In this document: piece after piece, positions 2,344-56,644 of the stretch
Layout: each line of letters starts with the position of its first letter
Numbering within the stretch: position 1 is the stretch's first letter
DNA from: Lytechinus variegatus
Lineage: Eukaryota
Direction: 5' to 3'
DNA length: 64,000 nucleotides
Assembly: GCF_018143015.1 (NCBI RefSeq)
Contig: NC_054742.1
Span: 58,284,853 to 58,348,852 of the forward strand
The notes under the pieces: generated by a model
Seen by the model: the letters and a program-made list of their open reading frames with translations, nothing else
The model's database searches: none
Told to the model about the DNA's origin: nothing
Translations under genes and position numbers: made by a program

Positions 2344-3374
2344 AACAAGTGGAATGCCTCTGGCCTTCTCTCGCCTGCATTACGCGATTCGATATAGCAG
2401 TAGTACTGACTTTGAAAACAGCTAGTACATAATTATTCACAAAAGAATACTATGTCCATTGACCCAAGATGATTTTTGACCATGATCATATGACCTAAGA
2501 CATGTGCAAAACAATTATTTATACTTGATTACCTTATGTCTATGTTTCATGAACTACATGTGTAGATCCATACACTTTCTAAGTTAAAATGCAAATTCAA
2601 CAAATATACCCAACACAGCAAATTTCATTGACCCTAAATGACCTTTGATTTTGGTCATGTGTCCAGAAACAAGCACAAAATATTCAGGAATACATGGTTA
2701 CTCTAATGTCCCATGAACTAGATCTATAAACTTTAAAGTTATGACAATTCCACCAACCCCCCCTCCACATTATCAAAGTTCATTGTCCCTACATGACCTT
2801 TGACCTAGATCATGTTATATGAAACTTGCACAAGATGTTCAGGGATACTTAATTGATCTTAGTCTAAGTTACATGAACTAGATCTCTAAAATGACAGTTA
2901 TGACAATTCCTCAAGTACGCCAACATGGTCAAAGTTCGTTGACCAAAGTGACCTTTGACCTTGGTCAAGTGACCTGAAATTCAGGCAGGATCTTCAGTTA
3001 TACACTATCACCTTATGTCCAAGTTTCATGAACTAGGTCCATACAATCTAGAAGTTATGATATTTCAAATACTTAACCTTGGTTAAGATTTTGATATTGA
3101 TTCCCCCAACATAGTCCAAGTTCATTGACCCTAAATGACCTTTGACCTTGGTCATGTGACCTGACACTCAGGCAGGATGTTCAGTAAGACTGATTACCTT
3201 TACATGTATGTCCGAGTTTCATGTGCTAAGTCTATATATTTTCTACGTTATGATGACTTATGATTTCAAAACTCTAACTTGGTAAAGATTTTAATGTTGA
3301 CGACTCCGCCGTCATTGGAAAAGCGACGCCTATAGTCTCACTCTGCTATGCCGGCGAGGCAAAACCCAGATTCT
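2344..3374 (+). mobile_element. Composite element copy 1. It has an ~80-bp head (AACAAGTGGAATGCCTCTGGCCGTCTCACCTGCAT...), five to six tandem units of ~170 bp (core GACCTTTGACCTTGGTCATGTGACCTGAAA), and a tail (...GCGGCGCCTATAGTCTCACTCTGCTATGCAGGTGAGACAAAA). Head and tail form a 13-bp inverted repeat, GTCTCACCTGCAT / ATGCAGGTGAGAC.
   Basis: There are four copies with the same head, array and tail architecture. Confidence 0.7.
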
Positions 3375-4105
3375 TCCTTATTGTCCAAATCCTTAAAAAA
3401 ATTATGGTAATTTGGCTCTTTCTATATTACCGTCAGTCCCATGAACTAGATCTATAAACTTTAAGTTATGACAATTCCACCATACCCCCCCTCCACATTA
3501 TCAAAGTTCATTGTCCCTACATGACCTTTGACCTAGATCATGTTATATGAAACTTGCACAAGATGTTCAGGGATACTTAATTGATCTTAGTCTAAGTTAC
3601 ATGAACTAGATCTCTAAAATGACAGTTATGACAATTCCTCAAGTACGCCAACATGGTCAAAGTTCGTTGACCAAAGTGACCTTTGACCTGGTCAAGTGAC
3701 CTGAAATTCAGGCAGGATCTTCAGTTATACACTATCACCCTTATGTCCAAGTTTCATGAACTAGGTCCATACACTCTAGAAGTTATGATATTTCAAATAC
3801 TTAACCTTGGTTAAGATTTTGATATTGATTCCCCCAACATAGTCCAAGTTCATTGACCCTAAATGACCTTTGACCTTGGTCATGTGACTTGACACTCAGG
3901 CAGGATGTTCAGTAAGACTTGATTACCTTTACATGTATGTCCGAGTTTCATGTGCTAAGTCTATATATTTTCTACGTTATGATGACTTATGATTTCAAAA
4001 CTCTAACCTTGGTAAAGATTTTAATGTTGACGACTCCGCCGTCATTGGAAAAGCGACGCCTATAGTCTCACTCTGCTATGCCGGCGAGGCAAAACCCAGA
4101 TTCTT
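3375..4105 (+). repeat. Tandem duplicate (~730 bp) of the last four units plus tail of composite copy 1
   Basis: Region 2700-3374 is repeated nearly identically at 3424-4100. Confidence 0.75.
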
Positions 4106-4769
4106 CCTTATTGTCCAAATCCTTAAAAAAAATTATGGTAATTATGCTCTTTCTATATTACCGTCATTCTTAATTCATCTTTTTTTTCTATATCAACAGC
4201 TCATTCTTAATTGTCACCTTGCTCTATCCTGTTCTATTCTTCAGTCAGCTTGCCATCATTCCTTCTTTTCACAAACTTTTTTATCTTCTGCCATTCTAAG
4301 TCAGAATGAATATACTGTAAGACATCATTCGCAAACATTCCTATTTAATGAATTCACTTTTGTTACATGCCCAGTGATAAACTATTTCAAATAATCAGAA
4401 TGCACACAGTGTAAATTATTTGTTGTAAAGTTGTGCAAATTATGTTTGTCCAAACTTAACAGCAAGTACATGTGATCTACACTACAGGATTTCTGTGTGG
4501 TCTTCGGCCTCTTCTCCAAGTTTTTATAACAGTCCATTATTGGTGTTAACTTCCACTTTACTCCTCTTGGACTTTCTGGTATTGAGTAGTAGTGGTCCTC
4601 GAGAAATGAAGGTGCTGAAGACTTTGGTACAGGTGTCTTTGCAGTATCTGGGAGGGTGTTTGCAAAATCGAAATTCTTTCCAGGAATTCCTTGGTTTGGG
4701 TCATTTCTGTACGAGACAAATTAGAAAAAAGAAACATTTAAGAAAAAAAGATATCAAACAAAAGGGAAG

Positions 4770-5300
4770 GTGGTTATTTTCAAGATGGCGTCCAAGATGG
4801 CCGTCACTCAGTATCCACCATAGAATCCCATTTAGTTCGATTTTCATGGTCTATGGGGTAAACAAAATTGTTGATACAGGCTAGAGTGAATCATACATGT
4901 AATCCTTCCAATGTGATTGGCAAATCCAAGATGGCGCCCAAAATGGCTACCATAGGTTAAAAATCCACAATTCATCTAATTTGCTTTTATTTGGTTCTTA
5001 TTCAATGGTTTTAAGGGTGAAGTAGTACATTGGAACAAGTTACAAGGTCTGGTGTGTCCAAAAATCCAAGATGGTGTCCAAAATCCAAAGATGATCGATG
5101 GCTTCCCAAAATGGAGTTTAAAATGGCTGTTGAAAAATAAATTGGACATAGTTCTTTCATATCCACCTGGGACATAATGATTTTGGTTTCTAGACCAGGT
5201 TTCCAATGGTCAAATAAGACATTGGGATAAGTTACAAGGACAGTCGGTTCAAAAATCCAAGATGACTTCCAAAAATGGATTATAAATATTGCTGTTGCTA
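4770..5300. repeat. Array of the 'CCAAGATGGC..AAAATGGCTG' satellite family (~150-160-bp units)
   Basis: Tandem units are present. Related arrays lie at 6440-7780, 9340-9830, 12285-12445 and 13440-13900. Confidence 0.65.
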
Positions 5301-5306
5301 CTTTAA

Positions 5307-6409
5307 AACAAGTGGAATGCCTCTAGCCGTCTCACCTGCATCACGCGATTCAACATAGCAGCAGTGCTGACTTTGAAAACTACTTAACTCGCACAAGAAG
5401 TTCAGTGATACTTGGTTACTCTTATTTCCACATTTTATGAACTAGACCAATACACTTACAGAGATAGGATGGTAATTCAACAAATACCCCAAGGTTGCCA
5501 AAATTCACTGACCTAACATGACCTTTGACCTTGATCATGTGACCTGAAACTTGCACAGGATATTCAGTGATACTTGATTACTCTTATGTCCAAGTTTCAA
5601 AAGTCAGATCAATAAACTTGCAAAGTTATGATGGTAATTCAACAGATACCCCCATTATGGCCAAAGTTCATTGACCTTTGACCTTGTTAATGTGACCTAA
5701 AATGCGCACAGGATGTTCAGTGATACTTGATTACTCTTATGTCCAAGTTTTATGAACTAGACCAACATACTTTCAAAGTTATGATGGTAATTCAACAAAT
5801 ACCCCCAATTCGGCCAAAGTTTATTGACCCTAAATGACATTTGACCTTGATCATGTAACCTGAAACTTGCACAGGATGTTGAGTGATACTTAATTACTAT
5901 TATGTCCACGTTTCATGTATCAGATCCAAAAACTTTTAAAGTTTTGATTGTAATTCAACAGATGCCCCCAACTCGGCCAAAGTTCATTGACCTTAAATGA
6001 CCTTTGACCTTGGTCATGTGACGTGAAACTCATGCAGGATGTTTGGCGATACTTGATTAACCTTATGTCCAAGTTTAATGATCTAGGTCCATATATTTCC
6101 TAAGTTATGATGACATTTCAAAAACTTAACCTCAGGTTAAGATTTTGATGTTGATTCCTCCACATGGTCTAAGTTCATTGACCCTAAATGACCTTTGACC
6201 TTGGTCATGTGACATGAAACTCTAATAGGATGTTCAGTAATACTTGATCAACCTTATGGCCAAGTTTCATGAACTAGGTCCATATACTTTCTAAGTTATG
6301 ATGCCATTTCAAAAACTTAACCTCAGGTTAAGATTTGATATAGATGCCGCCGCCGCCGTCGGAAAAGCGGCGCCTACAGTCTCACTCTGCTATGCAGGTG
6401 AGACAAAAA
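5307..6409 (+). mobile_element. Composite head / tandem-array / tail element, copy 2
   Basis: Head at 5307 and tail at 6350-6409. Confidence 0.7.
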
Positions 6410-6439
6410 CGACAGTTTGCTCAATATCTAGAAATATGA

Positions 6440-7780
6440 TTTTTCTGTGTCTATAACATGGTTAGATGGGTCAAATAATACATTGGGACAAGATACAAGG
6501 AAAGTCAGTGGTCTGTAATGTGCAAAAATCTGAGATGGATCCAAAAATTAATTCTGAAACTGCTATTATTACTGAAAGCAGACATAGCTCATTTCATTTT
6601 GCCCTGGGAGTTGTGACTGTGATGTCTAAACCACTGGTTTCAATGGTCAAATAAAGTAATAGGATAAGTTACAAGGACAGTCAGTGGTCTGGTATGTCCA
6701 AAAATAGAAGATGGCTTCCAAAAACCGATCCTACAAAAAAGGCTGCTGATATTTAAAGCGGACATAGCTTATTTCATTTTGGCCTGGGATATGTGATTTT
6801 GTCTAAACCACTGGTTTCAAGGGTCAATTAATACATTAGGGCAAGTTACAAGTACATTTTGTGGCCTGGGTTGTCAAAAAATCTAAATTGGCTTAAAAAA
6901 ATTATTCTAAATTGACTGTTGTTACTTAAAGCAGACATTCATATCGGCCTGGGAGATGCGATTTTAGTGTCTGATTTCAAGGTTCAAAATAATACATTAG
7001 GACAAGTTATAAGAACATAATCTGGTCTGGTATGACCAAAAATCCAATATGGCTTCTAAAAATTGATTCTAAAGTGGCTGCTGATACTTAAATGTGACAT
7101 AGCTCATTTTATATCCACCGGTGATGTATGATTTTGGTGTCTAAACTATGGTTTCAAGGGTCAAATTATATAGGACAAGTTACAATGACACTCATTGGTC
7201 TAGTATGTTCAAAATTCCAAGATGGCTTCTAAAAATGGAGTGCAAAATGTCTGATGTTACCTTTTTTTTTAAGAAAAGGACATAGTTTGTTCAATATCTG
7301 TCTGGGGAATATGAGTTTGGTGTCTAAACTATGGTTTAAAGGGTCAAGTAATACACCAGGGTTAGTTACAAGACCAGTCAGTTGTCTGTATGTTAAAATC
7401 CAAGACGACTTTAAAAAAAAAAGTGGTGTAAATTGACTGTTTTTACTTAAAAGTGTAAATAGTTTATTAGAATTACACCTCGGAGGTATGATTTTGCCGT
7501 CTACACTAGAATTTTAAGGGTCAATTCGTGCATTGCGTTAAGATGAAAGGACAGTAAGGTGTCAGGTATGTCCAAAAAAAGAAGATGGCTTTTAAATAGG
7601 GGTATTAAATGACTGTTGTTACTTAAAAATGAATAAAGAACATTACAAATACACCTTGAGTGTATTATATTCGTGTCTACGCTAGGGTTTTAAGGGTTGA
7701 AAATACTTTGGGACTGGTTACCATGAATGCAGTTATCTACATGTACTTTCCTTCTAAAAGTTGGCTTCAAAAATGGGTTC
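6440..7780. repeat. About eight units (~160 bp each) of the 'GGGTCAAATAATACATTGGGACAAGTTACAAGGACAGTCAGTGGTCTGGTATGTCCAAAAATCCAAGATGGCTTCC' satellite
   Basis: A clear tandem periodicity with decaying similarity. Confidence 0.75.
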
Positions 7781-7849
7781 TAGATGAAAAAATTAAAATC
7801 CATAATTTATTGTTCAAAATAGACATGAAATGAAATACTCAGAAAATTT

Positions 7850-7995
7850 GCTTTGCCCAATTGATCATGGGCCCGGCAGCCACTATCCCTTTAATCGTTG
7901 AACGCCAAACAGGGTAGCTTGAACCCCCGACCTCCCAGTTGTGAAATAGGCGCTCTACCAACTGAGCCAACACACTGGTGTTGATGCTCATCAGG
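7850..7995 (-). mobile_element. tRNA-derived SINE head (minus strand)
   Basis: The reverse complement reads ...TGGCTCAGTTGGTAGAGCGCCT...GGTCGGGGGTTCAAGCTACCC, with pol-III A and B boxes. Confidence 0.5.
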
Positions 7996-8265
7996 GCCGT
8001 CACCAGCTTTTTTCTGGGGGGGGGGGGGGTGCTTTTTATGAAAAAAAACAAAAACACAAAAACAACGTATTAACTCAATTTCATGCAGTTATATAGCCCG
8101 CCGGCCCGAATGGATATAGAAAGTACATACTGGTCAACATGCCTATTGTTCCTCAATGCAGTTTCGGTGTCTGTGTGTCTTTTTCTTTTTTTTTGGGGGG
8201 GGGTTCTGAAGGGGGGTGCGTTCGCACCCTCCGCACCCCCCCCCCCTGGCGACGGCCCTGCTCAT
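7965..8265. mobile_element. Short inverted-repeat element (CAGGGCCGTCRCCAG ends next to G13 / C12 tracts)
   Basis: 7968-7990 is the reverse complement of 8237-8262. Confidence 0.4.
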
Positions 8266-8393
8266 AGTTCATACAATATCCACCTGTGAGAAATAATCTT
8301 GGTGCCTGCACTTATGCATGGGGATAAGTTGTTTCATGAGTTGGTAAACATACCCATTTTGATGAAAGCTTAGAATCCACCATGAGTTTTGAA

Positions 8394-9305
8394 ACAAATG
8401 GAATGCCTTTGGCGGTCTCAACTGCATCACGCGATTCTATATAGAAGCAGTGCCGACTTTGAAAACTACTATAACTCGCACAAGATGTTCAGTGATACTT
8501 GGTCACTATTATTTCCACGTTTTATGAACTAGACCAATACACTTAGAGATAGGATGGTAATTCAACAAATACCCCAACGTGTCCAAAGTTCATTGACCTC
8601 ACATGACCTTTGACCTTGAACATGTGACCTGAAACTTGCACAGGATATTCAGTGATACTGGATTACTCTTATGTCCAAGTTTCAAAAGTCAGATCCATAA
8701 ACTTTCAAAGTTATGATGGTAATTCAACAGATACCCCCATTATGGCCAAGGTTCATTGACCTTTGACCTTGGTCATGTGACCTAAAATGCGCACAGGATG
8801 TTCAGTGATACTTGATTACTCTTATGTCCAAGTTTTATGAACTAGACAAACATACTTTCAAAGTTATGATGGTAATTCAACAAATACCCCCAATTTGGCC
8901 AAAGTTCAATGATCCTAAATGACCTTTGACCTTGATCATGTGACCTGAAACTTGCACAGGATGTTCAGTGATACTTGATCACTATTATGTCCACTTTTCA
9001 TGTATCAGATCCAAAAACTTTTAAAGTTTTGATTGTAATTCAACAGATGCCCCCAAATCGGCCAAAGTTCATTGACCCTAAATGACCTTTGACCTTGGTC
9101 ATGTGACGTGAAACTCGTGCAGGATGTTTGGTGATACTTGATTAACCTTATGTCCAAGTTTAATGAACTAGGTCCATATATTTTCTAAGTTATGATGTCA
9201 TTTCAAAAATTTAACCTTAGGTTAAGATTTGATGTTGACGCCGTCGCCGCTGCCGTCGGAATAGCGGCGCCTTTAGTCTCACTCTGCTATGCAGGTGAGA
9301 CAAAA
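8394..9305 (+). mobile_element. Composite head / tandem-array / tail element, copy 3
   Basis: Head at 8394 and tail at 9240-9305. Confidence 0.7.
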
Positions 9306-10683: not shown

Positions 10684-11808
10684 AACAAGTGGAATGCCTC
10701 TGGCCGTCTCACCTGCATCACGCGGTTCAATATAGCAGCAGTGCTGACTTTGAATACTACTCTAACTCGCACAAGATGTTCAGTGATACATGGTTACCCT
10801 TATGTCCACTTTTTATGAACTAGACCAATAAACTTACAGAGATATGATGGTTATTCAACAAAAAACCCCAACATGGCCAAAGTTGAGTGACCTTACATGA
10901 CCTTTGACCTTGATCATGTGACCTGAAACTCGAACAGGATGTTCAGTGATACCTGATTACTCTTATGTACAAGTTTCATGAATCAGGTCCATAAACTTTC
11001 AAATTTATGATGGTAATTCAACAGATACACCAATTCGGCCAAAGTTAATTGACCTTTGACCTTGGTCATGTGACCTGAAACGCACACAGGATGTTCAGTG
11101 ATACTTGATTACTCTAATGTCCAAGTTTAATGAACTAGACCAATAAACTTTTAAAGTTATGATGGTAATTCAACAGATACCCCCGATTCGGCCAAAGTTC
11201 ATTGACCCTAAATGACCTTTGACCTTAATCATGAGACCTGAAACTTGCTCAAAACTTTCAGTGATGCTTGATTACTATTATGTCTAAGTTTCATGAATCA
11301 GATCCATAAACTTTCAAAGTTATGATGGGAATTCAACAGATATCCCCAATTCGGCCAAAGTTCATTGACCCTAAATGACCTTTGACCTTGGTCATGTGAC
11401 GTGAAACTCATGCAGGATGTTCAGTGATACTTGATTAACCTTATGTCCAAGTTTCATGAACTAGGTATATATATTTTCTAAGTTATGATGACATTTCAAA
11501 AACTTAACCTCAGGTTAAGATTTCGATGTTGAATCCTCCAACATGGTCTAAGTTCATTGACCCTAAATGACCTTTGACCTTGGTCATGTGACATGAAACT
11601 CTAATAGGATGTTCAGTAATACTTGATCAACCTTATGGCCAAGTTTCATGAACTAGGTCCATATACTTTCTAAGTTATGACGTCATTTCAAAAACTTAAC
11701 CTCAGGTTAAGATTTGATGTTGACGCCGACGCCGCCGTCGGAAAAGCGCCGCCGCCGTCGGAAAAGCGGCGCCTATAGTCTCACTTTGCTTCGCAGGTGA
11801 GACAAAAA
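10684..11808 (+). mobile_element. Composite element copy 4, inserted inside the inverted MITE-A copy
   Basis: Head at 10684. The tail has an internal CCGCCGTCGGAAAAGCG duplication. The flanks are contiguous MITE-A sequence. Confidence 0.7.
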
Positions 11809-12284
11809 TTGCGATATCAAATAATTTTCTTATGTATTTTATTGTTTTTTGCAATTTCTTATGTATTTTTCTTTTTGACCTTTCGTTTTTCATTGTTTTT
11901 TCAATGAAATTTATTGGGGACTCTTCTGTGATCATAAAAAGCAGAAAATAAATACATTTAGACCAGCAAAACTAAAAATAATCATACATTTATGAATTTT
12001 GCTTGAAAACACAATTTGCATTGACTTTGTACACGAAATCACGTTTTTGAGCAATTTTTGGTCCAACATGCACTTACAAAATGTTACGTAATTTTGGAAC
12101 CACGTACCCGGGTGACTTAAAGTTGGTCTCAAAAGTTGCGCAAGACTTGAAAGTAAAAAGTCAGCGAGCGGCACGGTCAAAAAATTTTGCACACCGAAAA
12201 TATTGCGCGATTTGTTGAGGGGGAGGGGCCTCCGAGACCCCCCCCCCCCGCCTAGATAGGGATAACCCATTTAACAATGGTATA

Positions 12285-12445
12285 GGCACAAAAATCATAT
12301 TCCGGATATTGAACAAACTATGACATTGGGTTTTTTTTAAGTAGCAACAGCATTTCTTACTCCTTGGATTTTTGAACATACCTGACCACTGAGTGTTGTC
12401 CCAATGTATTATTTGACCATTGAAACCATGATCTAGACAACAAAA
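12285..12445. repeat. Single unit of the 'CCAAGATGGC' satellite family
   Basis: Similar to the 6440-7780 units. Confidence 0.5.
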
Positions 12446-13439
12446 TCATATTCGCGCCTAATACTAATTTGTTATTATTATTAGCTCACAAGCTTCAGAT
12501 GAAAATTTTACAATTTTTAGAACTTTTTAAACTCAAACACAATTGAATAGGTTTACAGGATTTTATTAGTCATGATTTTAATGCATGTATTTCACATTGT
12601 AACAACTAAAGGGAAACTGTTTTTTATGCCAACATTTTACTCATTTTTATTAAGATTTCTTATGTGGTGGAAGATGTGTTATTTTACAAACTGCGTCATT
12701 CTCCAAATTTTAAGTAAGCGTTCTCAGAATTGAGCAGGACGGTTTCTTGGGACGGGCGACCACTCAGCCCCCCCCCTTGGTTCTTCTTCTTTTTTTTTTA
12801 TCTGTATGCTTAATGAGTGCAAGGTGTCAGGGGTGACTGCTGGGTTGGTGGGTGCAGTTGTTTGATTTAACGTGCTTATGGTTGGTTGTTTGGATGAATG
12901 AGGAGTGTGCTATGAATGTAAATGTTTTTTTTTTTTTGTAAGAGATTGTTTGTCGGCCCTATTAATGTAGTGAGGTTAGCTGACCCTAAGTTCCGCCTGA
13001 GCGATGGATTTGAATAACCAATTCCATTGCCCAGGTTGAATGGTGTTGTAGAGGATTGGCATTCCCTGGCTGGAGCTGTGCATTGAACTTGACTGCTCGC
13101 TCGTCCCCAGACACACTCCTGTCTTTAGTTCTTTTGTTACTTGCTTAAATCTACGTTTTTATTGTTTGAATTTGAGTGGCGATGTTTGTCAATAAGCATT
13201 CTTCCACCACCACCATCTTTCAGTCTTCTATTTGTTCTTTTGTTAAGTTGCATTATATTTTCTTAATCAATTCAAGTTTTGATGTTTTTAAATCAGCTAT
13301 TTATACATGTATATACCTGTAAATTGTACACAATACAGCCTTTTGGCTGCAACGTGCAATGATTTCGAATAAAATCTTTTCAATTCAATTCATCTCACAT
13401 GTAGATATGATATCAGCTATGTCCATTTTAATCATACAG

Positions 13440-13900
13440 CCATTTTAAACTCAATTTTTGGAAGATATCTTGGATTTTTGGACACACAAGACCACTGACT
13501 GTCCTTGTAACTTGTCCCGATGTACTACTTCAATACTTAAACCATTGCACAGAATTGAATTTAGAATTAAAGCCACTGAAGTAATAGATGAATTAGATTT
13601 TTTAGCCTACGGCAGCCATTTTGGGCGCCATCTTGGATTTCCTGGTACCTTGGAGTGCTAATATTCACTCTAACTTCTATCAATAAATTTCTTTACCCAC
13701 TGGACCATGGAATATGAACATAAATAGGATTCTAGAGTGGATAATGAGAGAACTATATCCATTTTCAGTGAATGGCGGCCACCTTGGACACCCTCTTGAA
13801 AATAAGTACTTTCCCAGATGTAGATTTTGGTAGATTTTTAGTACTTTATTCCTGAGGTCAAATACTGCCAGAAACAGTTGAAAAATCATTTGTTGCAATT
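13440..13900. repeat. 'CCAAGATGGC' satellite family, about three units in inverted orientation
   Basis: Contains GGCGCCATCTTGGATTT and GGCGGCCACCTTGGACA motifs. Confidence 0.55.
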
Positions 13901-14672: not shown

Positions 14673-17550
14673 ACATGGGTCAGTCCATGTCATATCAACC
14701 AATGCTTGTCACCCAACCCACTTTGATTTTCTTTAAACTCGCACAAAATGTTGCCCCAAGTGTCTGACGGAAAAATCTGAAATATTTTGCCCCAAGGTCA
14801 AATGGTTGCTAAGATACGGCCTCCCATAGCAACCAATGCGCGCACAACAAAATTATTTTAAATAAAATTGCCTATTTTTGATTGACTACTGCAGCAAAGT
14901 TTGATTGATAGCAGTCTTTATTTTCAGTAAATTGGAAGAACTTTTTGGTCTAAACATGCAGAGTATACTGTAGCGCGGACCTGTCAACCGGATTTTGCAC
15001 ACGAGGCCACCGAAAATGGCGTTAAGCATCCGTGTCAATGATTTCAGAAGCATGTTTGGAGGCTCATAAATCCAAAACTAAATTAGCTTAGAACCAAATA
15101 TTGTGCACATTAATGTACTTTCAGATACTCAACAGATTTACAAAAAATTGACCAAAGAGTATGTGTCGTTTTCCTGTAGGGCGCCGTCAAAGTTGGATAT
15201 TTTCAAAAGATGCCAAGTTCAAGGTCACGGATCGCCTCCCGTCCCATCGAGGAGGGGGACCAATTTCTGTGTTTTGATAGACATTTACCCATATTTTCAA
15301 GTGTTACTTGAGAAATTTTGCTAACGGAATGTTTAGGGGCTGATTTGCGCAATCCAAAATGGTCGTAAACACCCTAAAATTGATGTTAATGACAATATAT
15401 GCTTTTCAACAATTTTCAAATTGTGATAACTCAAAGATGAAGAGCCCAAAGACATTGATATCTTCTGTGACGATAGTCTGTAATTAGTATTAAAAGAATA
15501 TATCTTCAGAAATATTTTTATTGTTGGCAAGGACCTTGAAAACACACCTAAAATTCAATAAAAACAGTAAATTTGCTAATTTTCCAGAATCATAATGGTG
15601 TTTACATTGACTTTCAAATGGGTGTCATTTCAATACAAAGGGTGAGCTTAAGCCAAAACTTGAAAGACATGTTCAACTTTTGGTCTACTTTGGGCAACAT
15701 AAAATATTTGAACTCAAAACCATATCATTTGACCTTGAAATTATTCCAAATATAGCTATTTGTTGCTTCATAAGTACATGTAGCACATCCAAATCGCGCG
15801 TGTACTTTGTACTTTGCAACACATTTCAAAATGAATTTTCTCATAGAGAGAATACCTGATCAGGCTGATATTTGCAGTATAAGTAGTCTGTAATGGGTTC
15901 TTGGAGGATCTTAAGATTAAGTACCTATTCTCTCATGACAATGACCTTGAAAATACAGCTGAAAATAATCAATAAATCATACAATTTTCATAAATAATCA
16001 AGTGTTTTTTATCAACTTTTCATTGTGTGTTATTCCATCTTGGATTGTGAGTTCATGCTGATAATTGCAAATCCTGTTCCACTTTTGGTCTACTTTCAGC
16101 TACATAAAATATTTGAACTCAAGACCATATCATTTGACCTTGAAATTATTCTAAATATAGCTATATGTTGCTTTATAAGTAGCATATTCAAATCGTGCGT
16201 GTACATTGTACTTTGCAACCTATTTCAAAATGGATTTTCTCATAGAGAGAATACATGATCAGGCTGATATTTGCAGTATTAGTAGTCTGTAATTAGTGCT
16301 TGGAAAATCTACAGTTTAGGTAACTATTCTATCAAGACATGAGTGGGTTAAAAACACTTGATTACTAATGAAAATAGTATGATTTATTGATTTTCACGAT
16401 TATCAGCTGTATTTTCAAGGTCATTGTCATGAGAGAATAGGTACTTAATCTGTAGGTCCTCCAAGAACTCATTACCAACTACTTATACTGCAAATATCAG
16501 CCTGATCAGGTATTCTCTCTATGAGAAAATCCATTTTGAAATGTGTTGCAAAGTACAATGAACACGCGCGATTTGAATATGCTACTTATGAGCAACAAAT
16601 GGCTATATTTGGAATAATTTCAAGGTCAAATGATATGGTTTTGAGATCAAATATTTTATGTTGCTCAAAGTAGACCAAAAGTTGAACATGTCTTTCAAGT
16701 TTTGGCTTAAGCTCACCCTTTGTATTGAAATGACACCCATTTGAAAGTCAATGTAAACACCATTTGAATGCCATTATGATTCTGGAAAATTAGCATATTT
16801 ACTGTTTTTATTGAATTTTAGGTGTGTTTTCAAGGTCATTGCCAACAATAAAAACTATTTCTGTAGATATATTCTTTTAATACTAATCACAGACTACCAC
16901 CACAGAATATATCAATGTCTTTGGGCTCTTCATCTTTGAGTTATCACAATTTGGGAGGTGATCCGTGACCTTGAACTTGGCATCTTTTGATAAAAATCCA
17001 ACTTTGAGGGCGCCCTACAGGAAAATGACACGTACTCTTGGGTCAATTTTTTGTAATTCTGTCGAGTATCTGAAAGTACATTAATGTGCATAATATTTGG
17101 TTCTAAGCTAATTCAGTTTTGGATTTATGAGCCTCCAAACATGCTTCTGAAATCATTGACACGGATGCTTAACGCCATTTTCGGAGACCTCGTGTGCGAA
17201 ATCCGGTTGACAGGTCCGCGCTACAGTATACTCTGCATGTTTAGACCAAAAAGTTCTTCCAATTTACTGAAAATGAAGACTGTAATCAATCAAACTTTGC
17301 TGCAGTAGTCAATCAAAAATAGGCAATTTTATTTAAAATATAGGCAATTTTATTTAAAATAATTTTGTTGTGCGCGCATTGGTTGCTATGGGAGGCCGTA
17401 TCTTAGCAACCGACCTTCTGGCAAAATATTTCAGATTTTTCCGTCAGACACTTGGGGCAACATTTGGTGCGAGTTTAAAGAAAATCGAAGAGGGTCGGGT
17501 GACAAATTGTCTGAAAATTGGTTGATTTGACGTGGATTGACCCACATACC
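14673..17550. mobile_element. Foldback-like palindromic element (~2.9 kb). Its long inverted arms carry a ~400-bp sub-repeat, present twice in the left arm.
   Basis: 14673-16330 is the reverse complement of 16340-17550. A ~190-bp indel lies in the left arm at 15228-15420. A 21-bp duplication TAGGCAATTTTATTTAAAATA lies in the right arm. Confidence 0.7.
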
Positions 17551-18959: not shown

Positions 18960-19930
18960 GGCAATCAGCGACCCATAGCAGACAGACGAGACAAAAATAT
19001 TTTTGTGTGTTTTGACACAAAATCATTTCGTCGACGGAATGATTTCGCAACGGAACGAAATGAATAGACAGAGACAAAAATTTTTTGTGTTTTGACACAA
19101 AATCATTTCGTCGACAGGATATCGCATCTGAACGAAATGAATAGACAGAGGAGACGAAATTTTTTTGTGTTTTGGCACAAAATCATTTTGTCCACGGAAT
19201 AGATATCGCATCGGAACGAAATGAATAGACAGAGACAAAATTTTTTTGTGTGTTTTGACACAAAATCATTTCGTCGACAGAATAAATTTTGCATCGGGAC
19301 GAAATGAATTTTGTGGACGAAATTGATTAAGGGTGACACAGAATAAATTTCGTATACGAAATCACACTGCATCATGACGAAATGATTTTCGTTTGAGTGA
19401 AAAAACAAAGTGTGCATACAGAATTTTCCATTGGACACTTAGGGCGCCATTTCGTTAGATCAAAATTCATTTTGTACATACGAAATAAATTTTGTGGACG
19501 CAATTACATTTCGTCTCAACGAAAATTGATTTCGTCGGACGAAATTAATTTTATGTGACAAAAAATAAATTTCGTATACGAAATAAAACAGCGTCATGAC
19601 AGAATGATTTTCATATGAACAAAAACAAATTTTGTGTACGGAATGGCGTGAATTGGACGGAATTAAACATCGGACATTTGGTGCGCCATTTCGTTTGATC
19701 AAAATTCATTTCGTATGGCACGCCAAATATAGTTTGTGAACGTAATTACATTTTGTCTAGACAAAATTTATTTCGTGCATTTCGTCGAGACGAAATTAAT
19801 TTTATGTGACAAAAAATAAATTTCGTATACAAAATAAAACAGCGTCATGACGAAATGATTTTCGTCTGAATAAAAACATATTTTGTGTACGAAATGACTT
19901 GATTTGGACGAAATATACTGGCGGACACTT
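18960..19930. repeat. Satellite built on the ATTTCGTC/GACGAAAT palindromic motif (~80-bp units about four times, then ~230-bp units about three times)
   Basis: Repeated units of the type 'TTTGTGTTTTGACACAAAATCATTTCGTCGAC...GAACGAAATGAATAGACAGAGACAAAA'. Confidence 0.65.
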
Positions 19931-33949: not shown

Positions 33950-34620
33950 TGTTAACTGGTAAGTGAGGGCGAGTAAGGGTAGGCCTACGAGAGTGTGGGT
34001 GTGTTGGTTTCGGGGTCATTGATGTGTAATGCTATGATTAAGGGGAAAAAAGATGTGGGAGTGGGCATTAGGATATGAGTGATACCGTTACTATGATGAT
34101 AATGTGTGGAATGTAAGGGGGTGAGTGAGCGCTTATAAATAGACTATAAGGTGTGGGTGTGGAAATGTGGGTGAATGAGTGCTATAAGGATAAGTTGTTT
34201 GTAAGTGTGGAAGAGAGAGTGCTAGTATGAGGAAAATGTGTGGGTGTGCAAGCGTGGGTGAGTGAGCGCTAGTTTGAGGATAAGGAGTTGGTGTGTAAGT
34301 TGTGCTGGGTGTGTAAATGTGGGTAAATGAGCGTTAGTTTGAGGATAAGGAGTGGGTGGATGAGCGCTAGTATGAGGATGAGGTGTTGGCGAGTGAGCGT
34401 TAGTTTGAGGATAAGGTGTGGGTGAGCACTAGTATGAGGAGCAGGTGTGGGTGCAAATGCGGGTGAGTGAGCATTAGCTTGAGGATAAGGTGTGGGATTG
34501 TAAGTTTGGGTGAAGTTAAGTAATGGTCTGAGGATGAGCATGATAGTGTGTGTATGTGCGGTCGGGTGTTTAGGTGCAGATGATGTGTGAGAGTGACAGC
34601 ATTTAATTCTCCTTACACTC
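33950..34620. repeat. GT-rich minisatellite (35-45-bp units such as GTGGGTGAGTGAGCGCTAGTTTGAGGATAAGG)
   Basis: About 15 imperfect tandem units. Confidence 0.75.
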
Positions 34621-34823
34621 TCCCAACAGTTGTGCAAACATTTAGAGCTGCATGTAAAAACATATATCTGCTTTGCTTTATTATTACCGCTGTCATATTA
34701 TATCTCTTTTAAATTGCCATGAAATTAACAGGCTTCATTAAAGATACATTAAAGATCTTCTTCCATGAAAAGTAATGCAATTATTGCTTCAAATAACATC
34801 AGTGTTAATTGTTTGAATTCAAG

Positions 34824-34904
34824 GTTCAACTGAATGTGGAAATAGCTGGTAAATCTGTTGAAGAATCACTCAAATCACCAATCGAGTTTGAAGGATCATC
34901 TTTG
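34824..34904 (+). CDS. PARP4: PARP4 exon (VQLNVEIAGKSVEESLKSPIEFEGSSL)
   Basis: Acceptor is ttcaag|GTT and donor is TTG|gtaggt. Phase 0 at both ends. Confidence 0.65.
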
Positions 34905-35346
34905 GTAGGTAGATGTATGCCTATATGATTGATTTGTCATATTTATGCCGAATGAAGCAAAAGTCAGAACTTTTGAATGATGATTGCTCATTTTATCACA
35001 AACATTGTACTAAAGCTAAACAATATTGAATTGAATTGATTGAACTGAATTTATTTTTTTTCTTCATTTCAAACAAATTGACAAAGTGAGTAGGAACGCA
35101 TAATGTCACATAAGACCCCTTACGCTTAACTTTGCGACATCATGCGCTGATATCACATTACACTTTGCTGCGATAATGTATGTACAATATGACTATCGAA
35201 ATTTGTTTAAATGTCTCGAAATTAAAAAAAAAGAATGTTTTTTTAAAACGAGTGCACACCTAATTACTAATAATGCATATAGCATTTCCGTTTATTTGAA
35301 AGCAGGATAAAAGAGCATCGTAGATTAAATGACTTGCTCACGGGCT

Positions 35347-35839: not shown

Positions 35840-36200
<361 letters not shown>

Positions 36201-39817: not shown

Positions 39818-40610
39818 GTACGTGTCATTACATTTCTTATTACATGTACCTCCCTTGTACTTTCTTAATTCTTTGTTTTGGAATTTATCCTAGTAGAATC
39901 TGAAAACCGAGAATTTCTGAGAATCAAAGGGCTTCGGAAAGTAGATTTATTTAGAGCAATTTTCAGTTTTTATAAAGTGAGTGCAGAAAACCTTTTTTAC
40001 ATTTTCAATAATCAAAATATGTCTTTACAATTTGGCTCCTTTTTTAATTCAGTCTTTGGGCATAGGATATTCATGGGATGATAATATTCCAAGTATCAGT
40101 TATTATAATGTGAAGCGTAGCACATAATATGATATTTTAATATCCTAGTTCTGGGGACATTTTCGTACACTTTACCCATCAGATGGGGACGTCCTATAAA
40201 ACCAGGGACGATTTATGGAGTCCAGATAACCATACAAAACAATTCCTCATCTCATTTCAAACCAATTCATATTAAGTAAACGCATGATTTGTGAAAATAT
40301 CCCGTTTGGCCAATTAAACTCAAGTCGTGTGTTTTAGGTTGAGGGTTGTCCCCGATTGGCGGACTATGTTAACGCTATGTCCGAAAATGAGCCAGGTTGG
40401 TGGATTAAATTCAAAATTTGGGTGTACGAGACCGCACATGCACGTCTCAACTTTGGAGATTAATGAAAAATATCGAGTGCCTGATTGTCAAATTACAAGA
40501 AACGGTGTGTGTGTGTGGGGGGGGGGGGTGTGGATGAATATTAGGGTGCGTGTGTGCGTTTGTAGTGTATTCACCTTACCTCTAACTTGATTTATATTTA
40601 TTGCACACAG

Positions 40611-42311
40611 CTACAGGATATGTCCAGAGAGGTCCAACTGCAGTCAGGCCTATAAGTCTAGCCAAAAAGGAAATTAGAAAAGCAGTTAAATACCAATCGA
40701 GAAGGACATTTCCTTTCTCTTCGTTCTTGAAGCCAAAGAAGAAGGAAAAGAAGAAAATGGAACCAATATCGTTCGCAATGCATTCCGCCGCACCTGCTGA
40801 GAGGAGGCAATTTCGTGGTGGTGTGGTGAGTATGTCGAGTAAACCTAAAGAAGAGAGAGCATTGGACCAAAGGGAAACCGAACTAGTAGATGATGATAAC
40901 AGGGCTACTACACTGGATCAAGCAACTCTAGATGAACTCAGGAGGCAAGCTACCCGACTTGAAGAACAGCTAAAAAAAGAAGACTCACTTCTAGCGTCGG
41001 TCAAAGTGTTTAAAAAGAAGAAATCGTTGGGAAGAAGTTCATTGTTTGGATGGGGGAAAGGAAAAAGCAAACGGGAAAAGACAGTAGTAAAGAGTAAGGG
41101 TGCGACTATTTCTATTGGTAGTGGTGAAAAAAAATACGAAGAGCGGGAAGAAGCTGCTAGATATCTACCATCTGCACGCTTGATGAAGTTTGCTGAGTCG
41201 GATAAGAAGGTATGTGATTCAACTGCAGAGTCTCGCCGGCCTTCACCCCCGGCCATGGATGCGGATGAGGATCGATCATTAGAAGCATCTAAAGATTCTT
41301 TACATGAGAAGGAAGGGGAAGATGAAACAACTTATGCATTATCAGCCGAGTACAGCCCGCCATCATCACCAGCATTAGCTAGGGCACGACCGATTGAGGT
41401 ACTGTCACAGGGGAGTCCGGAAACATCTGACGACGAATTTCAGCAAATGTACAGTCTACTGTCAGCATCAACTAAATCACGGTCACTATCTTCGACGCCG
41501 TCACCACCAGAAGTTTATCTGAAGTATGGGCCAGCCCGTCCGGAGTCTCCACCATCTCCACCGCTGGTACTAGGAGCGGAAGCTCCATTGCCATCACCAT
41601 CAGGACCACCACAACCTCCTCCAGTGCCTCCTACTTCTGGTTCCGTATTGACACGTAAGATGCTGGGAGTGACACGTAGGATGCTGGGAGTGTCACCTCC
41701 TCCACCATTGCCATCCCGCTCAATGCCCCTCTTCTCTTCTGCATCCTCCTCCGGATGCAGGCCCACCAATGCCGGGAGTGTCACCTCCTCCTGCTCCACC
41801 ATTGCCACCTCCTTCAGCAGGCCTGCCAACAAGTAGGAGGATGCCGGTAGTGCCACCTCCTCCTCCTCCACCATTGCCACCCCGCTCAATGCCCTCTTCT
41901 CTTCTGCATTCTCCTCTGGATGCAGCCCCACCAATGCCGGGAGTGTCCCCTCCTCCTCCACCAACGCCACCTCCTCCAGCAGGCCTGCCAACAAGTAGGA
42001 GGATGCCGGTAGTGCCACATCCGCCGACTGCCCCTCGATTCCAGCCTCGCTCAAAGTCATCTTCTCGCTTTGACAGTACTGATTTGAAATCGAAGGATAA
42101 ATCTGTCGCAGACCAAGATATGATGTTCGATTTAACACTTCTTAGTACTATTACCCCAATCATGGATGGTGATGATGATGATGAGGATGATATCATATGG
42201 GAAGATGGTGAACTAATGGAACCAAAGAAGACTTGCAAATCACCAATCATATTTAAAGAGTCAAAGAGGACAGTTTCGGATTTCAACCACGTGATGTCTT
42301 TACAAAATAAG
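40611..42311 (+). CDS. PARP4: Large exon for the disordered region of PARP4 (~1.7 kb, Lys/Ser/Pro-rich). It carries poly-Pro 'PPPPPLP' motifs and an internal ~165-bp tandem duplication. As assembled, an apparent +1 frameshift lies near 41726-41729.
   Basis: Acceptor is cacag|CT (phase 1, consistent with the upstream exon). The terminal donor is AAG|gtaagt (phase 0, consistent with the next exon). The 5' frame stops at 41836. The 3' frame (ORF 41769..42323) runs through to the donor. Confidence 0.6.
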
Positions 42312-42625
42312 GTAAGTTACTGAGAGATAATTGCAAATAAAACATGGGAATCAGTTCTGTGCAAATGTTGTTTTTATTTATCATATATGATGTGTTTTTT
42401 TATCATTCTTACAATAGCAAAGTATGTTTCAATTCATCCAAGATAATATTTATGTACCAGACCTTCATTTTTTGTTACAGCTTTTATGTTACTTGTCAGT
42501 TTCACATTCAAAATGAATCGGTTTCTAATATATATATAACCCTCGATCAAATTACCTGTAGCTTTTTTCTCTCGCATTGTGTGCTTTAATCTCTTCCTAT
42601 GAATGTTATTTGGTTACTATTGCAG

Positions 42626-55753: not shown

Positions 55754-56301
55754 CTTGTAGGCTTATAACAAGTTGCATAACGCAAACAATAATAATGATA
55801 TCGTTGACTCTAAGCGAAATCCAGAAGCAATTTAATTTCCATTTGGAAGTGTTTGGCATCTGGTGCATTTGGTACTGATTTGAACTCTTACTAATTTGCA
55901 CTTTACTAGGGCAAATAAAGTATATTTTAAATAAGAGAGACTTACTATTTCCAGCAACAAAGTTAAATCAAATTAAGCAACTCATAAGAGTACGTTTGAT
56001 AATATATTCATATCCAATATATTAAAATCATATTTATGTAGCTTATGAATTCATACTCTAATATCTGATCCGTATTCCATGACAATGCTCATACCTTCTT
56101 CTCTTTGGAGAAGCATGGTTATGTAAACTTCTGTCATACAATTATACATAGGCCTATAATTTGACGTCATCTTATTTTACATTGTCTAATTCAGTTATTA
56201 AAGTAGATAGGCCCTATCAACAATATGACTTAGAGTTTAAGTTTAATTCAATTGTTACATTGGTTGAGGAGAAAATGATATAAGTGAACATCTGAACATA
56301 C

Positions 56302-56644
56302 CAAGGTGGACGCCGACATTTTTAATATCCTCTTCTGTAAGCGCCGATTCTCTGTATTTGTTGATATTACAGACAGTAATGGCTGGAAACTCCACTTCAG
56401 TCGTGTAGTAGACGTCAACTTGGGTGACATGGTTAAAAGAAATATATCCCTTTATAACAAGGTAGCATTCAAAAATACAGAAACCAAGTGCAGTTAAGAA
56501 GAGGCACAGCCAGATGAGACGTCGGAATGTGTTTCCAGATCCTGCTATGTGTTTGAGACCATGTAGATCGGAAGTGTCCGCGGCCCATCGACGAAGGTGG
56601 CATCTTCCAGGTCGGCATCCCATCTTCAGTTGGGATGTGATCAA
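56302..56644 (-). CDS. ASIC-like exon 1 (MITSQLKMGCRPGRCHLRRWAADTSDLHGLKHIAGSGNTFRRLIWLCLFLTALGFCIFECYLVIKGYISFNHVTQVDVYYTTEVEFPAITVCNINKYRESALTEEDIKNVGVHL)
   Basis: It matches ASIC1 'FASSSTLHGLAHIF...RALWALCFLGSLAVL...YYFHYHHVTKLDEV...FPAVTLCNLNEFR'. The donor on the minus strand is CTTG|gtatgt (phase 1). Confidence 0.8.

Follow-up and report, generated by a model that had tools for sequence, protein, structure and literature searches.

Here we describe a palindromic element of 2,867 bp (positions 14677–17543) in a 64,000-nucleotide stretch of Lytechinus variegatus DNA, contig NC_054742.1 of assembly GCF_018143015.1, hereafter the window. The element is most probably one ageing copy of a family of non-autonomous, foldback-type DNA transposons in an animal genome. 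This reading follows from its architecture, its lack of coding capacity, the existence of a dispersed family with sharp ends, the conservation and differentiation of its termini, and the co-evolution of its two arms. A candidate 4-bp direct repeat, ACAT, at the ends of the window copy is also counted in its favor, although it is not reproduced in the second complete copy that we recovered.

A long inverted repeat at 14676–17544 was found by a repeat scan, by BLAST of the sequence against itself and by global alignment. The self-comparison gives a long inverted diagonal, which bears out the 2.9-kb palindrome reported by a first-pass annotation made from the letters alone. The left arm (14676–16017, 1,342 nt) and the right arm (16342–17544, 1,203 nt) are inverted copies of each other and enclose an unpaired spacer of 324 nt (16018–16341). 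As such, nearly all of the element is terminal inverted repeat (TIR), and TIRs of such length, forming most or all of an element, are what defines the foldback class. The arms had been described as nearly perfectly inverted and 1.3–1.6 kb long; the inversion stands, while the sizes and the identity, about 95% at aligned sites, were somewhat overstated. Within the arms, an outer domain of about 565 bp (14676–15240) pairs with 16953–17544 at 89.6% identity including gaps, or 95.2% over 561 aligned sites, and the inner part (15417–16017) pairs with 16342–16953 at 91.3% including gaps, or 95.1% over 594 aligned sites. Substitutions between the arms amount to 30 transitions and 26 transversions, a Kimura two-parameter distance of about 0.05, and there are insertions or deletions (indels) of 176, 21, 11, 9, 6 and 6 nt. 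The first of these corresponds to the segment of about 190 bp (15228–15420) that had been noted in the left arm only, which is real and can be narrowed to 176 bp at 15241–15416; the others are specific to the right arm and comprise a 21-bp tandem duplication at 17315–17361 plus the changes of 9, 11, 6 and 6 nt. The inverted match is far above chance (BLAST E = 0), and the predicted single-strand fold of the element forms 1,112 arm-to-arm pairs at -1953 kcal/mol, compared with -653 +/- 13 kcal/mol for shuffled sequences. No other long palindrome of high identity occurs within the window. The parts of the element are as follows.

14673–14676 (unstranded): candidate 4-bp target-site duplication ACAT, left copy, directly outside the inverted-repeat end
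14677–14745 (+): A-type terminal region (GGGTCAGTCCATGTCA...CAATGCTTGTCACCC), 92.5% identical to the A end of the second complete copy, as against about 80% in the arm interior
14677–15240 (+): outer non-repetitive domain of the left (A) arm, pairing with 16953–17543
15241–15416 (+): 176-bp linker, kept only in the left arm here and present in both arms of the second complete copy
15417–15524 (+): partial inner unit (unit tail), pairing with 16845–16952
15525–15935 (+): inner tandem unit 1 (about 411 bp), 95% identical to 16430–16844 and 80% to unit 2
15936–16341 (+): inner tandem unit 2, a direct repeat of unit 1 that includes the 324-nt unpaired spacer
16342–16429 (-): inverted unit head (first 80 nt or so) beside the centre, partner of the start of unit 2
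16430–16844 (-): inverted tandem unit 1', matching unit 1
16845–16952 (-): inverted partial unit (tail), pairing with 15417–15524
16953–17543 (-): outer domain of the right (B) arm with the 21-bp tandem duplication, pairing with the left outer domain
17468–17543 (-): B-type terminal region (GGGTCAATCCACGTCA...CAATTTTCAGACAATTTGTCACCC on the minus strand), 96.1% identical to the B end of the second complete copy
17544–17547 (unstranded): candidate 4-bp target-site duplication ACAT, right copy, outside the inverted-repeat end

The element has no evident coding capacity: its longest stop-free frame is 86 aa, and every open reading frame (ORF) is shorter than 90 aa. Searches of the element against Rfam gave no match even at E = 1, and no tRNA-like module was found in it. 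A protein search with the outer-domain frame, an exact look-up of one of its ORFs, and DNA and peptide-pattern scans of JGI metagenomes, prokaryotic genomes and viral contigs likewise gave no match. Relatives were nevertheless reached by way of protein databases, the rationale being that gene callers place short ORFs on eukaryotic contigs. When the stop-free frame of unit 1 was searched with phmmer against 1.84 billion protein representatives, one match of 86 aa (P0004) was found to begin with MTMTLKIQLKI, which is precisely how the unit head ATGACAATGACCTTGAAAATACAGCTGAAAATA translates, and to continue in the frame of the unit. Two further matches, P0003 and P0005, were discarded as spurious, being long repeat proteins that sum many weak stretches.

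The contig encoding P0004, here called L003 (ENA ERZ26222911), carries a complete foldback at an unrelated locus, and cluster look-ups of the ORFs of that element led to four more contigs of the same sample (L004–L007), so that family members are present on five contigs of one ENA sample. The two arms of the L003 foldback are 96.4% identical to each other. One of them is colinear with the left arm of the window copy across 1.38 kb at 78% identity, and the outer domain of the window copy (14677–15240) matches L003 at 2020–2587 (83%) and 11074–11635 (78%). The B arm of L003 is split by a miniature inverted-repeat transposable element (MITE) of about 640 bp and an insertion of 6.35 kb, and aligns seamlessly once both are removed. 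Copies within the sample are 86–99% identical among themselves as opposed to 73–83% to the window copy, which indicates that the source of the window is a genome, or a sub-family, related to theirs yet distinct. Among the four arms that the two full copies comprise, three contain the 176-bp segment, namely both L003 arms and the left arm in the window; it was thus lost by deletion from the right arm in the window.

At both ends, homology between the window copy and L003 breaks off no more than a few nucleotides from the terminal GGGTCA. No relationship is seen among the flanks of the five ends examined (A and B in the window, A and B in L003, A in L006). The family is therefore dispersed with sharp ends. 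Recurrence at unrelated loci, with homology ceasing at the TIR termini, is a further hallmark of the foldback class, and it is seen across the window copy, L003, L006 and the group formed by L004, L005 and L007. The fragmentary copies would be consistent with the decay of an old family. In L006 a single A-type arm is followed by a retrotransposon insertion and then by further units, while the arms in L004, L005 and L007 lack the outer 390 nt or so, all three breaking off at the same position. Since L004 and L007 share another 1.1 kb (93% identical) beyond the point of truncation, these are copies of one rearranged segment. Taken together, the complete foldback in L003, the dispersed arm copies, the sharp ends and the conserved termini support the foldback transposon proposed by the first-pass annotation. 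A one-off local palindrome is not supported, as the structure recurs at an unrelated locus.

In each of the full copies an A end is combined with a B end, and an A end is also present in L006. The A end reads ...TCCATGTCA...CAATGCTTGTCACCC, and its characteristic states, CCAT and the short GCTT form, are present in the window, L003 and L006. The B end reads ...TCCACGT.A...CAATTTTCAGACAATTTGTCACCC and is set apart by a 9-nt insertion and the CCAC state, both of which are common to the window and L003. In the terminal 90 alignment columns, at 92–96% identity, three substitutions and the 9-nt indel sort by end type and none by element. In the arm interior, at about 80% identity, none sort by end type, none crosswise, and 84 sites by element. 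The same A/B differences in both full copies mean that the foldback predates their separation and spread as a whole, rather than having formed anew at each locus. Furthermore, the terminal 70 nt or so are 92–96% identical between the two full copies (A 92.5%, B 96.1%) as opposed to about 80% in the interior, indicating a constraint at the level of the family like that on the cis-acting ends of transposons. Conservation of this kind would be predicted for ends on which mobility depends.

The 84 interior sites that group by element, against none that group otherwise, indicate that the arm interiors have been homogenized within each element. In line with this, the arms of L003 are closer to one another, at 96.4%, than to other copies in the same genome (86–93%). 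The simplest mechanism of homogenization would be gene conversion or recombination between the arms that stops short of the termini.

The inner part of each arm is built from tandem units of about 405 bp, with two full units on the left and one on the right, confirming the sub-repeat of some 400 bp noted earlier in these numbers; the right arm has an inverted unit head of about 80 nt as well. Units 1 (15525–15935) and 2 (15936–16341) are direct repeats about 80–85% identical. Unit 1 is 95% identical to the inverted unit at 16430–16844 (92% counting gaps), and unit 2 has an inverted partner for its first 82 nt or so only (16342–16429, 91.5%). A weak partial unit tail lies at 15402–15484, and the partial unit given above as 15417–15524 matches unit positions 288–370 weakly. 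Counted in this way, the arms carry 2 and 1.2 units in the window and 2.6 and 1.3 in L003, the variable tandem repeats of a modular TIR. In each full copy, one side of the centre has several units and the other a single unit with a short head (about 80 nt beside the centre in the window, an equivalent of 111 nt in L003), leaving the junction asymmetric. The side with several units is next to the A end in the window but next to the B end in L003. Such an arrangement would be expected if recombination between the arms had inverted the centre, and separate gain or loss of units could also produce it. A central junction common to the two full copies was considered and rejected, as the junctions lie at different unit positions. 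Across both genomes, the nine units cluster strictly by genome. The earlier suggestion that the palindrome may be unstable or recombinogenic would find its grounds here, in the asymmetric and differently remodeled centres and in unit numbers that differ between arms and copies.

The 10-mer TGACCTTGAA (reverse complement TTCAAGGTCA) occurs eight times in the element, at 15218, 15730, 15942, 16135, 16414, 16619, 16829 and 16966, and nine times in the window, where 0.27 occurrences are expected. It is invariant at two positions in all nine units of both genomes, and it also lies inside a 23-nt block common to all four outer domains. It could be a putative protein-binding site, with the proviso that other blocks are equally conserved. 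The motif TGACCTTGA was likewise considered as a uniquely conserved site and rejected: it is invariant in 9/9 units, but so are several other blocks.

From these patterns we infer a course of events in which a transposase supplied in trans would have recognized the conserved termini and mobilized the foldback in its entirety. Later gene conversion or recombination between the arms would keep them alike without reaching the terminal 70 nt or so, and this recombination, along with unequal exchange among the tandem units, would remodel the centre, possibly flipping it, and alter the number of units.

Several observations weigh against reading the element as a foldback transposon. There is no consistent target-site duplication (TSD). 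The window copy is bounded by ACAT|GGGTCA...TGACCC|ACAT, with a probability of 0.0058 that such a repeat arises by chance at fixed boundaries. In L003 no direct repeat adjoins the boundary (flanks ATTT and AATA), the best candidate being an offset 7-mer with one mismatch. Apart from that 7-mer, no direct repeat of at least 7 bp was found at or near the ends of either full copy, so the TSD of 8–10 bp (usually 9 bp) typical of Mutator-type elements is seen in neither. The TSDs of Galileo, a foldback-like element discussed below, are 7 bp long, and these are not seen here either. No autonomous copy was found among the recovered relatives, of which only two are full-length; L006 is a single arm, and L004, L005 and L007 are outer-truncated copies within a larger segment. 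Moreover, an empty site reconstructed from the flanks in the window gave no match, and the flanks match nothing else.

The termini do not point clearly to a superfamily. Their 5'-RR...YY-3' form (GGGTCA...TGACCC) is that of Kolobok elements, a signature that is weak by itself, and the TTAA target site of Kolobok is present neither in the window (ACAT/ACAT) nor in L003 (ATTT/AATA). The target site of Tc1/mariner elements, Stowaway-like MITEs included, is TA, and each of the four ends of the full copies does have a TA dinucleotide beyond GGGTCA, at a distance of 3 nt (2 nt in one case). However, the nucleotides in between vary (CAT, TGT, TT, TTT), and the TA is indistinguishable from AT-rich flanking sequence. 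The reverse strand of L005 (7758–8236) holds decayed fragments of a Mutator-like transposase (PF20700, E 3e-12 and 4e-08). These lie about 1.5 kb inside the L005 arm, beside an insertion resembling Ty3/gypsy gag and rve, and no second arm is seen there. A transposase of Mutator-like elements as the family's own gene is thus unsupported, as the L005 fragments are common to no other copy. We would place the element in a new, unclassified family of foldback type, since it does fit the structural definition of a foldback.

The palindrome could alternatively consist of two separately inserted single-arm elements lying head to head, in which case the mobile unit would be one arm, made up of terminus, outer domain and a tail of tandem units, and the inverted pairing a matter of chance or preference. 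Arms in a single orientation without an inverted partner do exist, in L006 with its A-type terminus and in L004 and L007, and given these fragmentary copies we keep a small probability for a single-arm unit. What counts against it is that both full foldbacks join one A end to one B end with the same 9-nt indel, and that the arms of each are mutual closest relatives, by 84 sites to none, the L003 arms being closer to each other than to other copies of their own genome. In addition, L004, L005 and L007 do not represent free insertions of single arms, as all three derive from one rearranged segment. A non-mobile inverted duplication formed in place, by fold-back replication error or palindromic amplification, would account for the asymmetric centre with its spacer, as known from fold-back inversions, and for the absence of a clear TSD in L003. 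Such a duplication should be confined to one locus, and yet the same structure with the same differentiated ends stands in L003, whose flanks show no similarity to the window and give no sign of orthology, and further copies of the arms have unrelated flanks as well; its probability is very slight.

It is also conceivable that the foldback now acts as a long hairpin-RNA locus serving or targeted by the host, yielding about 1.1 kb of double-stranded RNA for small interfering or PIWI-interacting RNAs and being under selection for pairing. The predicted 1,112-bp hairpin is very stable, and the arms co-evolve in both genomes. The unpaired indels of 176, 21, 11 and 9 nt, however, as well as 5% of mismatches without sign of compensatory change, speak against such selection, and the copies decay by truncation and nested insertion as ordinary repeats do, for which reason we see only a slight likelihood in it. 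Lastly, palindromes are a known class of long-read artefact, and a chimeric fold-back read might have produced this one. The likelihood of this is negligible: 56 substitutions and several multi-nucleotide indels separate the arms, the unit numbers are unequal, the structure is internal to the window, and the same design is present on the independent contig L003. There is a low but appreciable chance that the family belongs to a transposase group undescribed for foldbacks (GG...CC termini and a 4-bp TSD other than TTAA), or that its arms are kept alike as a source of hairpin RNA, or both. If the hairpin-RNA part were true, gene conversion would not be the whole cause of the co-evolution of the arms (84 sites to none) alongside protected, differentiated termini, and the pattern would be a sign of function.

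With the foldback transposon as the preferred reading, the element closest to it in plan is Tetris of Drosophila virilis, in which an external flanking domain is joined to tandem repeats of about 220 bp whose number is unequal between the arms, without an ORF (PMC4079207). Both elements are nearly all TIR, with an outer non-repetitive domain followed by tandem repeats several hundred bp in size (for Tetris 220 bp, about 405 bp here). In both, the repeat number varies between arms and copies, and a few complete copies stand among many rearranged fragments. There is no sequence similarity, however, and the TSDs of 8–9 bp in Tetris are absent here (PMC4079207). The repeats of Tetris have also grown into satellite arrays (PMC4079207). 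Drosophila FB and Tm1 of root-knot nematodes, of the Mutator/Foldback group, similarly have long composite TIRs made of internal repeats, and many of their copies are non-coding. In Tm1 the motifs at the two outer ends are asymmetric, comparable to the A and B ends here, and TIR identity within elements has a mean of 93% (PMC3169594). FB and Tm1 differ in their short TIR repeats (10–31 bp and about 14 bp), in a 9-bp TSD and in their link to a Mutator-like transposase (PMC3169594). Galileo, of the P superfamily in Drosophila, resembles our element in its long, internally repetitive, foldback-like TIRs and great structural variation, and differs in encoding a P-type transposase, none being seen in the element here (PMC3573991, PMC4168063).

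The Kolobok superfamily is widespread in marine invertebrates and duplicates TTAA (PMC9587614). The likeness lies in the RR...YY termini (PMC9587614), GG...CC here, and in the 4-bp repeat flanking the window copy; the repeat is ACAT instead of TTAA and is absent in L003, and no transposase is present. KolobokP elements have long terminal direct repeats, whereas those here are inverted. The bivalve elements DTC84, pearl and Cg_HINE (tandem-repeat MITEs and arrays borne by Helentrons) are also short and non-coding with a few internal tandem units (PMC3879986, PMC7492417). In those elements a single direct array lies between short ends, whereas here the array is split into inverted halves, the arms exceed 1 kb, and the inverted repeat spans the whole arm.

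The contigs of the relatives hold other repeats. In L003, the MITE (1378–2019) has TIRs of about 24 bp (GGCGKTCATCCGAAC...) flanked by duplicated AATT. The 6.35-kb insertion (2588–8936) has 153-bp TIRs (99% identical) and four ORFs of 337–379 aa, in which no Pfam domain was found. A 72-bp tandem array of about 23 copies (roughly 92% identical) at 12212–13863 reads through as an ORF of 377 aa, whose weak Pfam matches are spurious. Further self-palindromes of 250–690 bp (68–92%) occur in L004 (127–493, 9721–10316, 10861–11202), L006 (2070–2536, 3033–3400, 16619–16866) and L007 (1–668), and hairpin-type repeats seem to be common in the genome of these contigs.

The window itself has the character of animal nuclear DNA, with almost no long ORFs and many satellite-like arrays. 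On its reverse strand, 56255–56644 is the first exon of a DEG/ENaC (amiloride-sensitive sodium) channel (PF00858, E 5e-23), 86% identical to a Logan contig from SRR28370583; the contigs matched by this exon (L001 and L002) have no repeat in common with the window. At 40601–42323, a GC-rich (52%) open frame of 411 aa is followed by two copies of a 162-bp proline-rich, FH1-like repeat. This open frame probably represents a large exon. It lacks a homologue among 5.8 billion proteins and has no Pfam domain, and the 305-aa proline-rich exon gave no match.

Four short arrays of a 163/191-bp repeat lie 2–3 kb apart at 2619–2979, 5390–6336, 8473–9197 and 10764–11723. Each unit carries clustered TGACCT/AGGTCA hexamers (TGACCTTTGACCTTGGTCATGTGACCT), and most of the 83 such hexamers in the window (about 24 expected) fall in these arrays. 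The arrays have the look of satellites carried by a transposon, and their hexamers are similar to the half-sites of nuclear receptors. Kinship between these satellites and the units of the foldback was considered and rejected, as sensitive BLAST found none and only the short TGACCT-type motif is common to both. About 1.4 kb downstream of the element, and unrelated to it, tandem units of 80–83 bp and 251 bp rich in ACGAAAT / GACGAAATGAAT occupy 18980–19914. An array of 4.5 units of 177 bp (6468–7236) has weak inverted matches (66–83%) at 9.5–9.8 kb and 12.3–13.5 kb (12265–13530), and may represent another dispersed repeat family. The window further contains an (AGT)n microsatellite that is very long, at about 115 repeats (35854–36198), and a strong GC skew (+0.50) at 34001–35000, over TG-rich repeats of 33/65 bp at 34237–34425.

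For annotation, these findings mean that masking the locus as a non-autonomous foldback transposon is appropriate, and that it should be handled neither as a structural oddity of its own nor as an assembly error. Long inverted arms that are nearly identical are able to adopt hairpin or cruciform structures and to promote inversions and deletions, which makes the locus a plausible fragile or recombinogenic site. The locus is ordinary repeat biology, with neat co-evolution of the arms and protected, differentiated ends. The comparison of two genomes provides a clean, small example of concerted evolution between the arms of a transposon, and the conserved, end-specific terminal 70 nt or so mark the likely cis-acting ends from which to hunt for the transposase.

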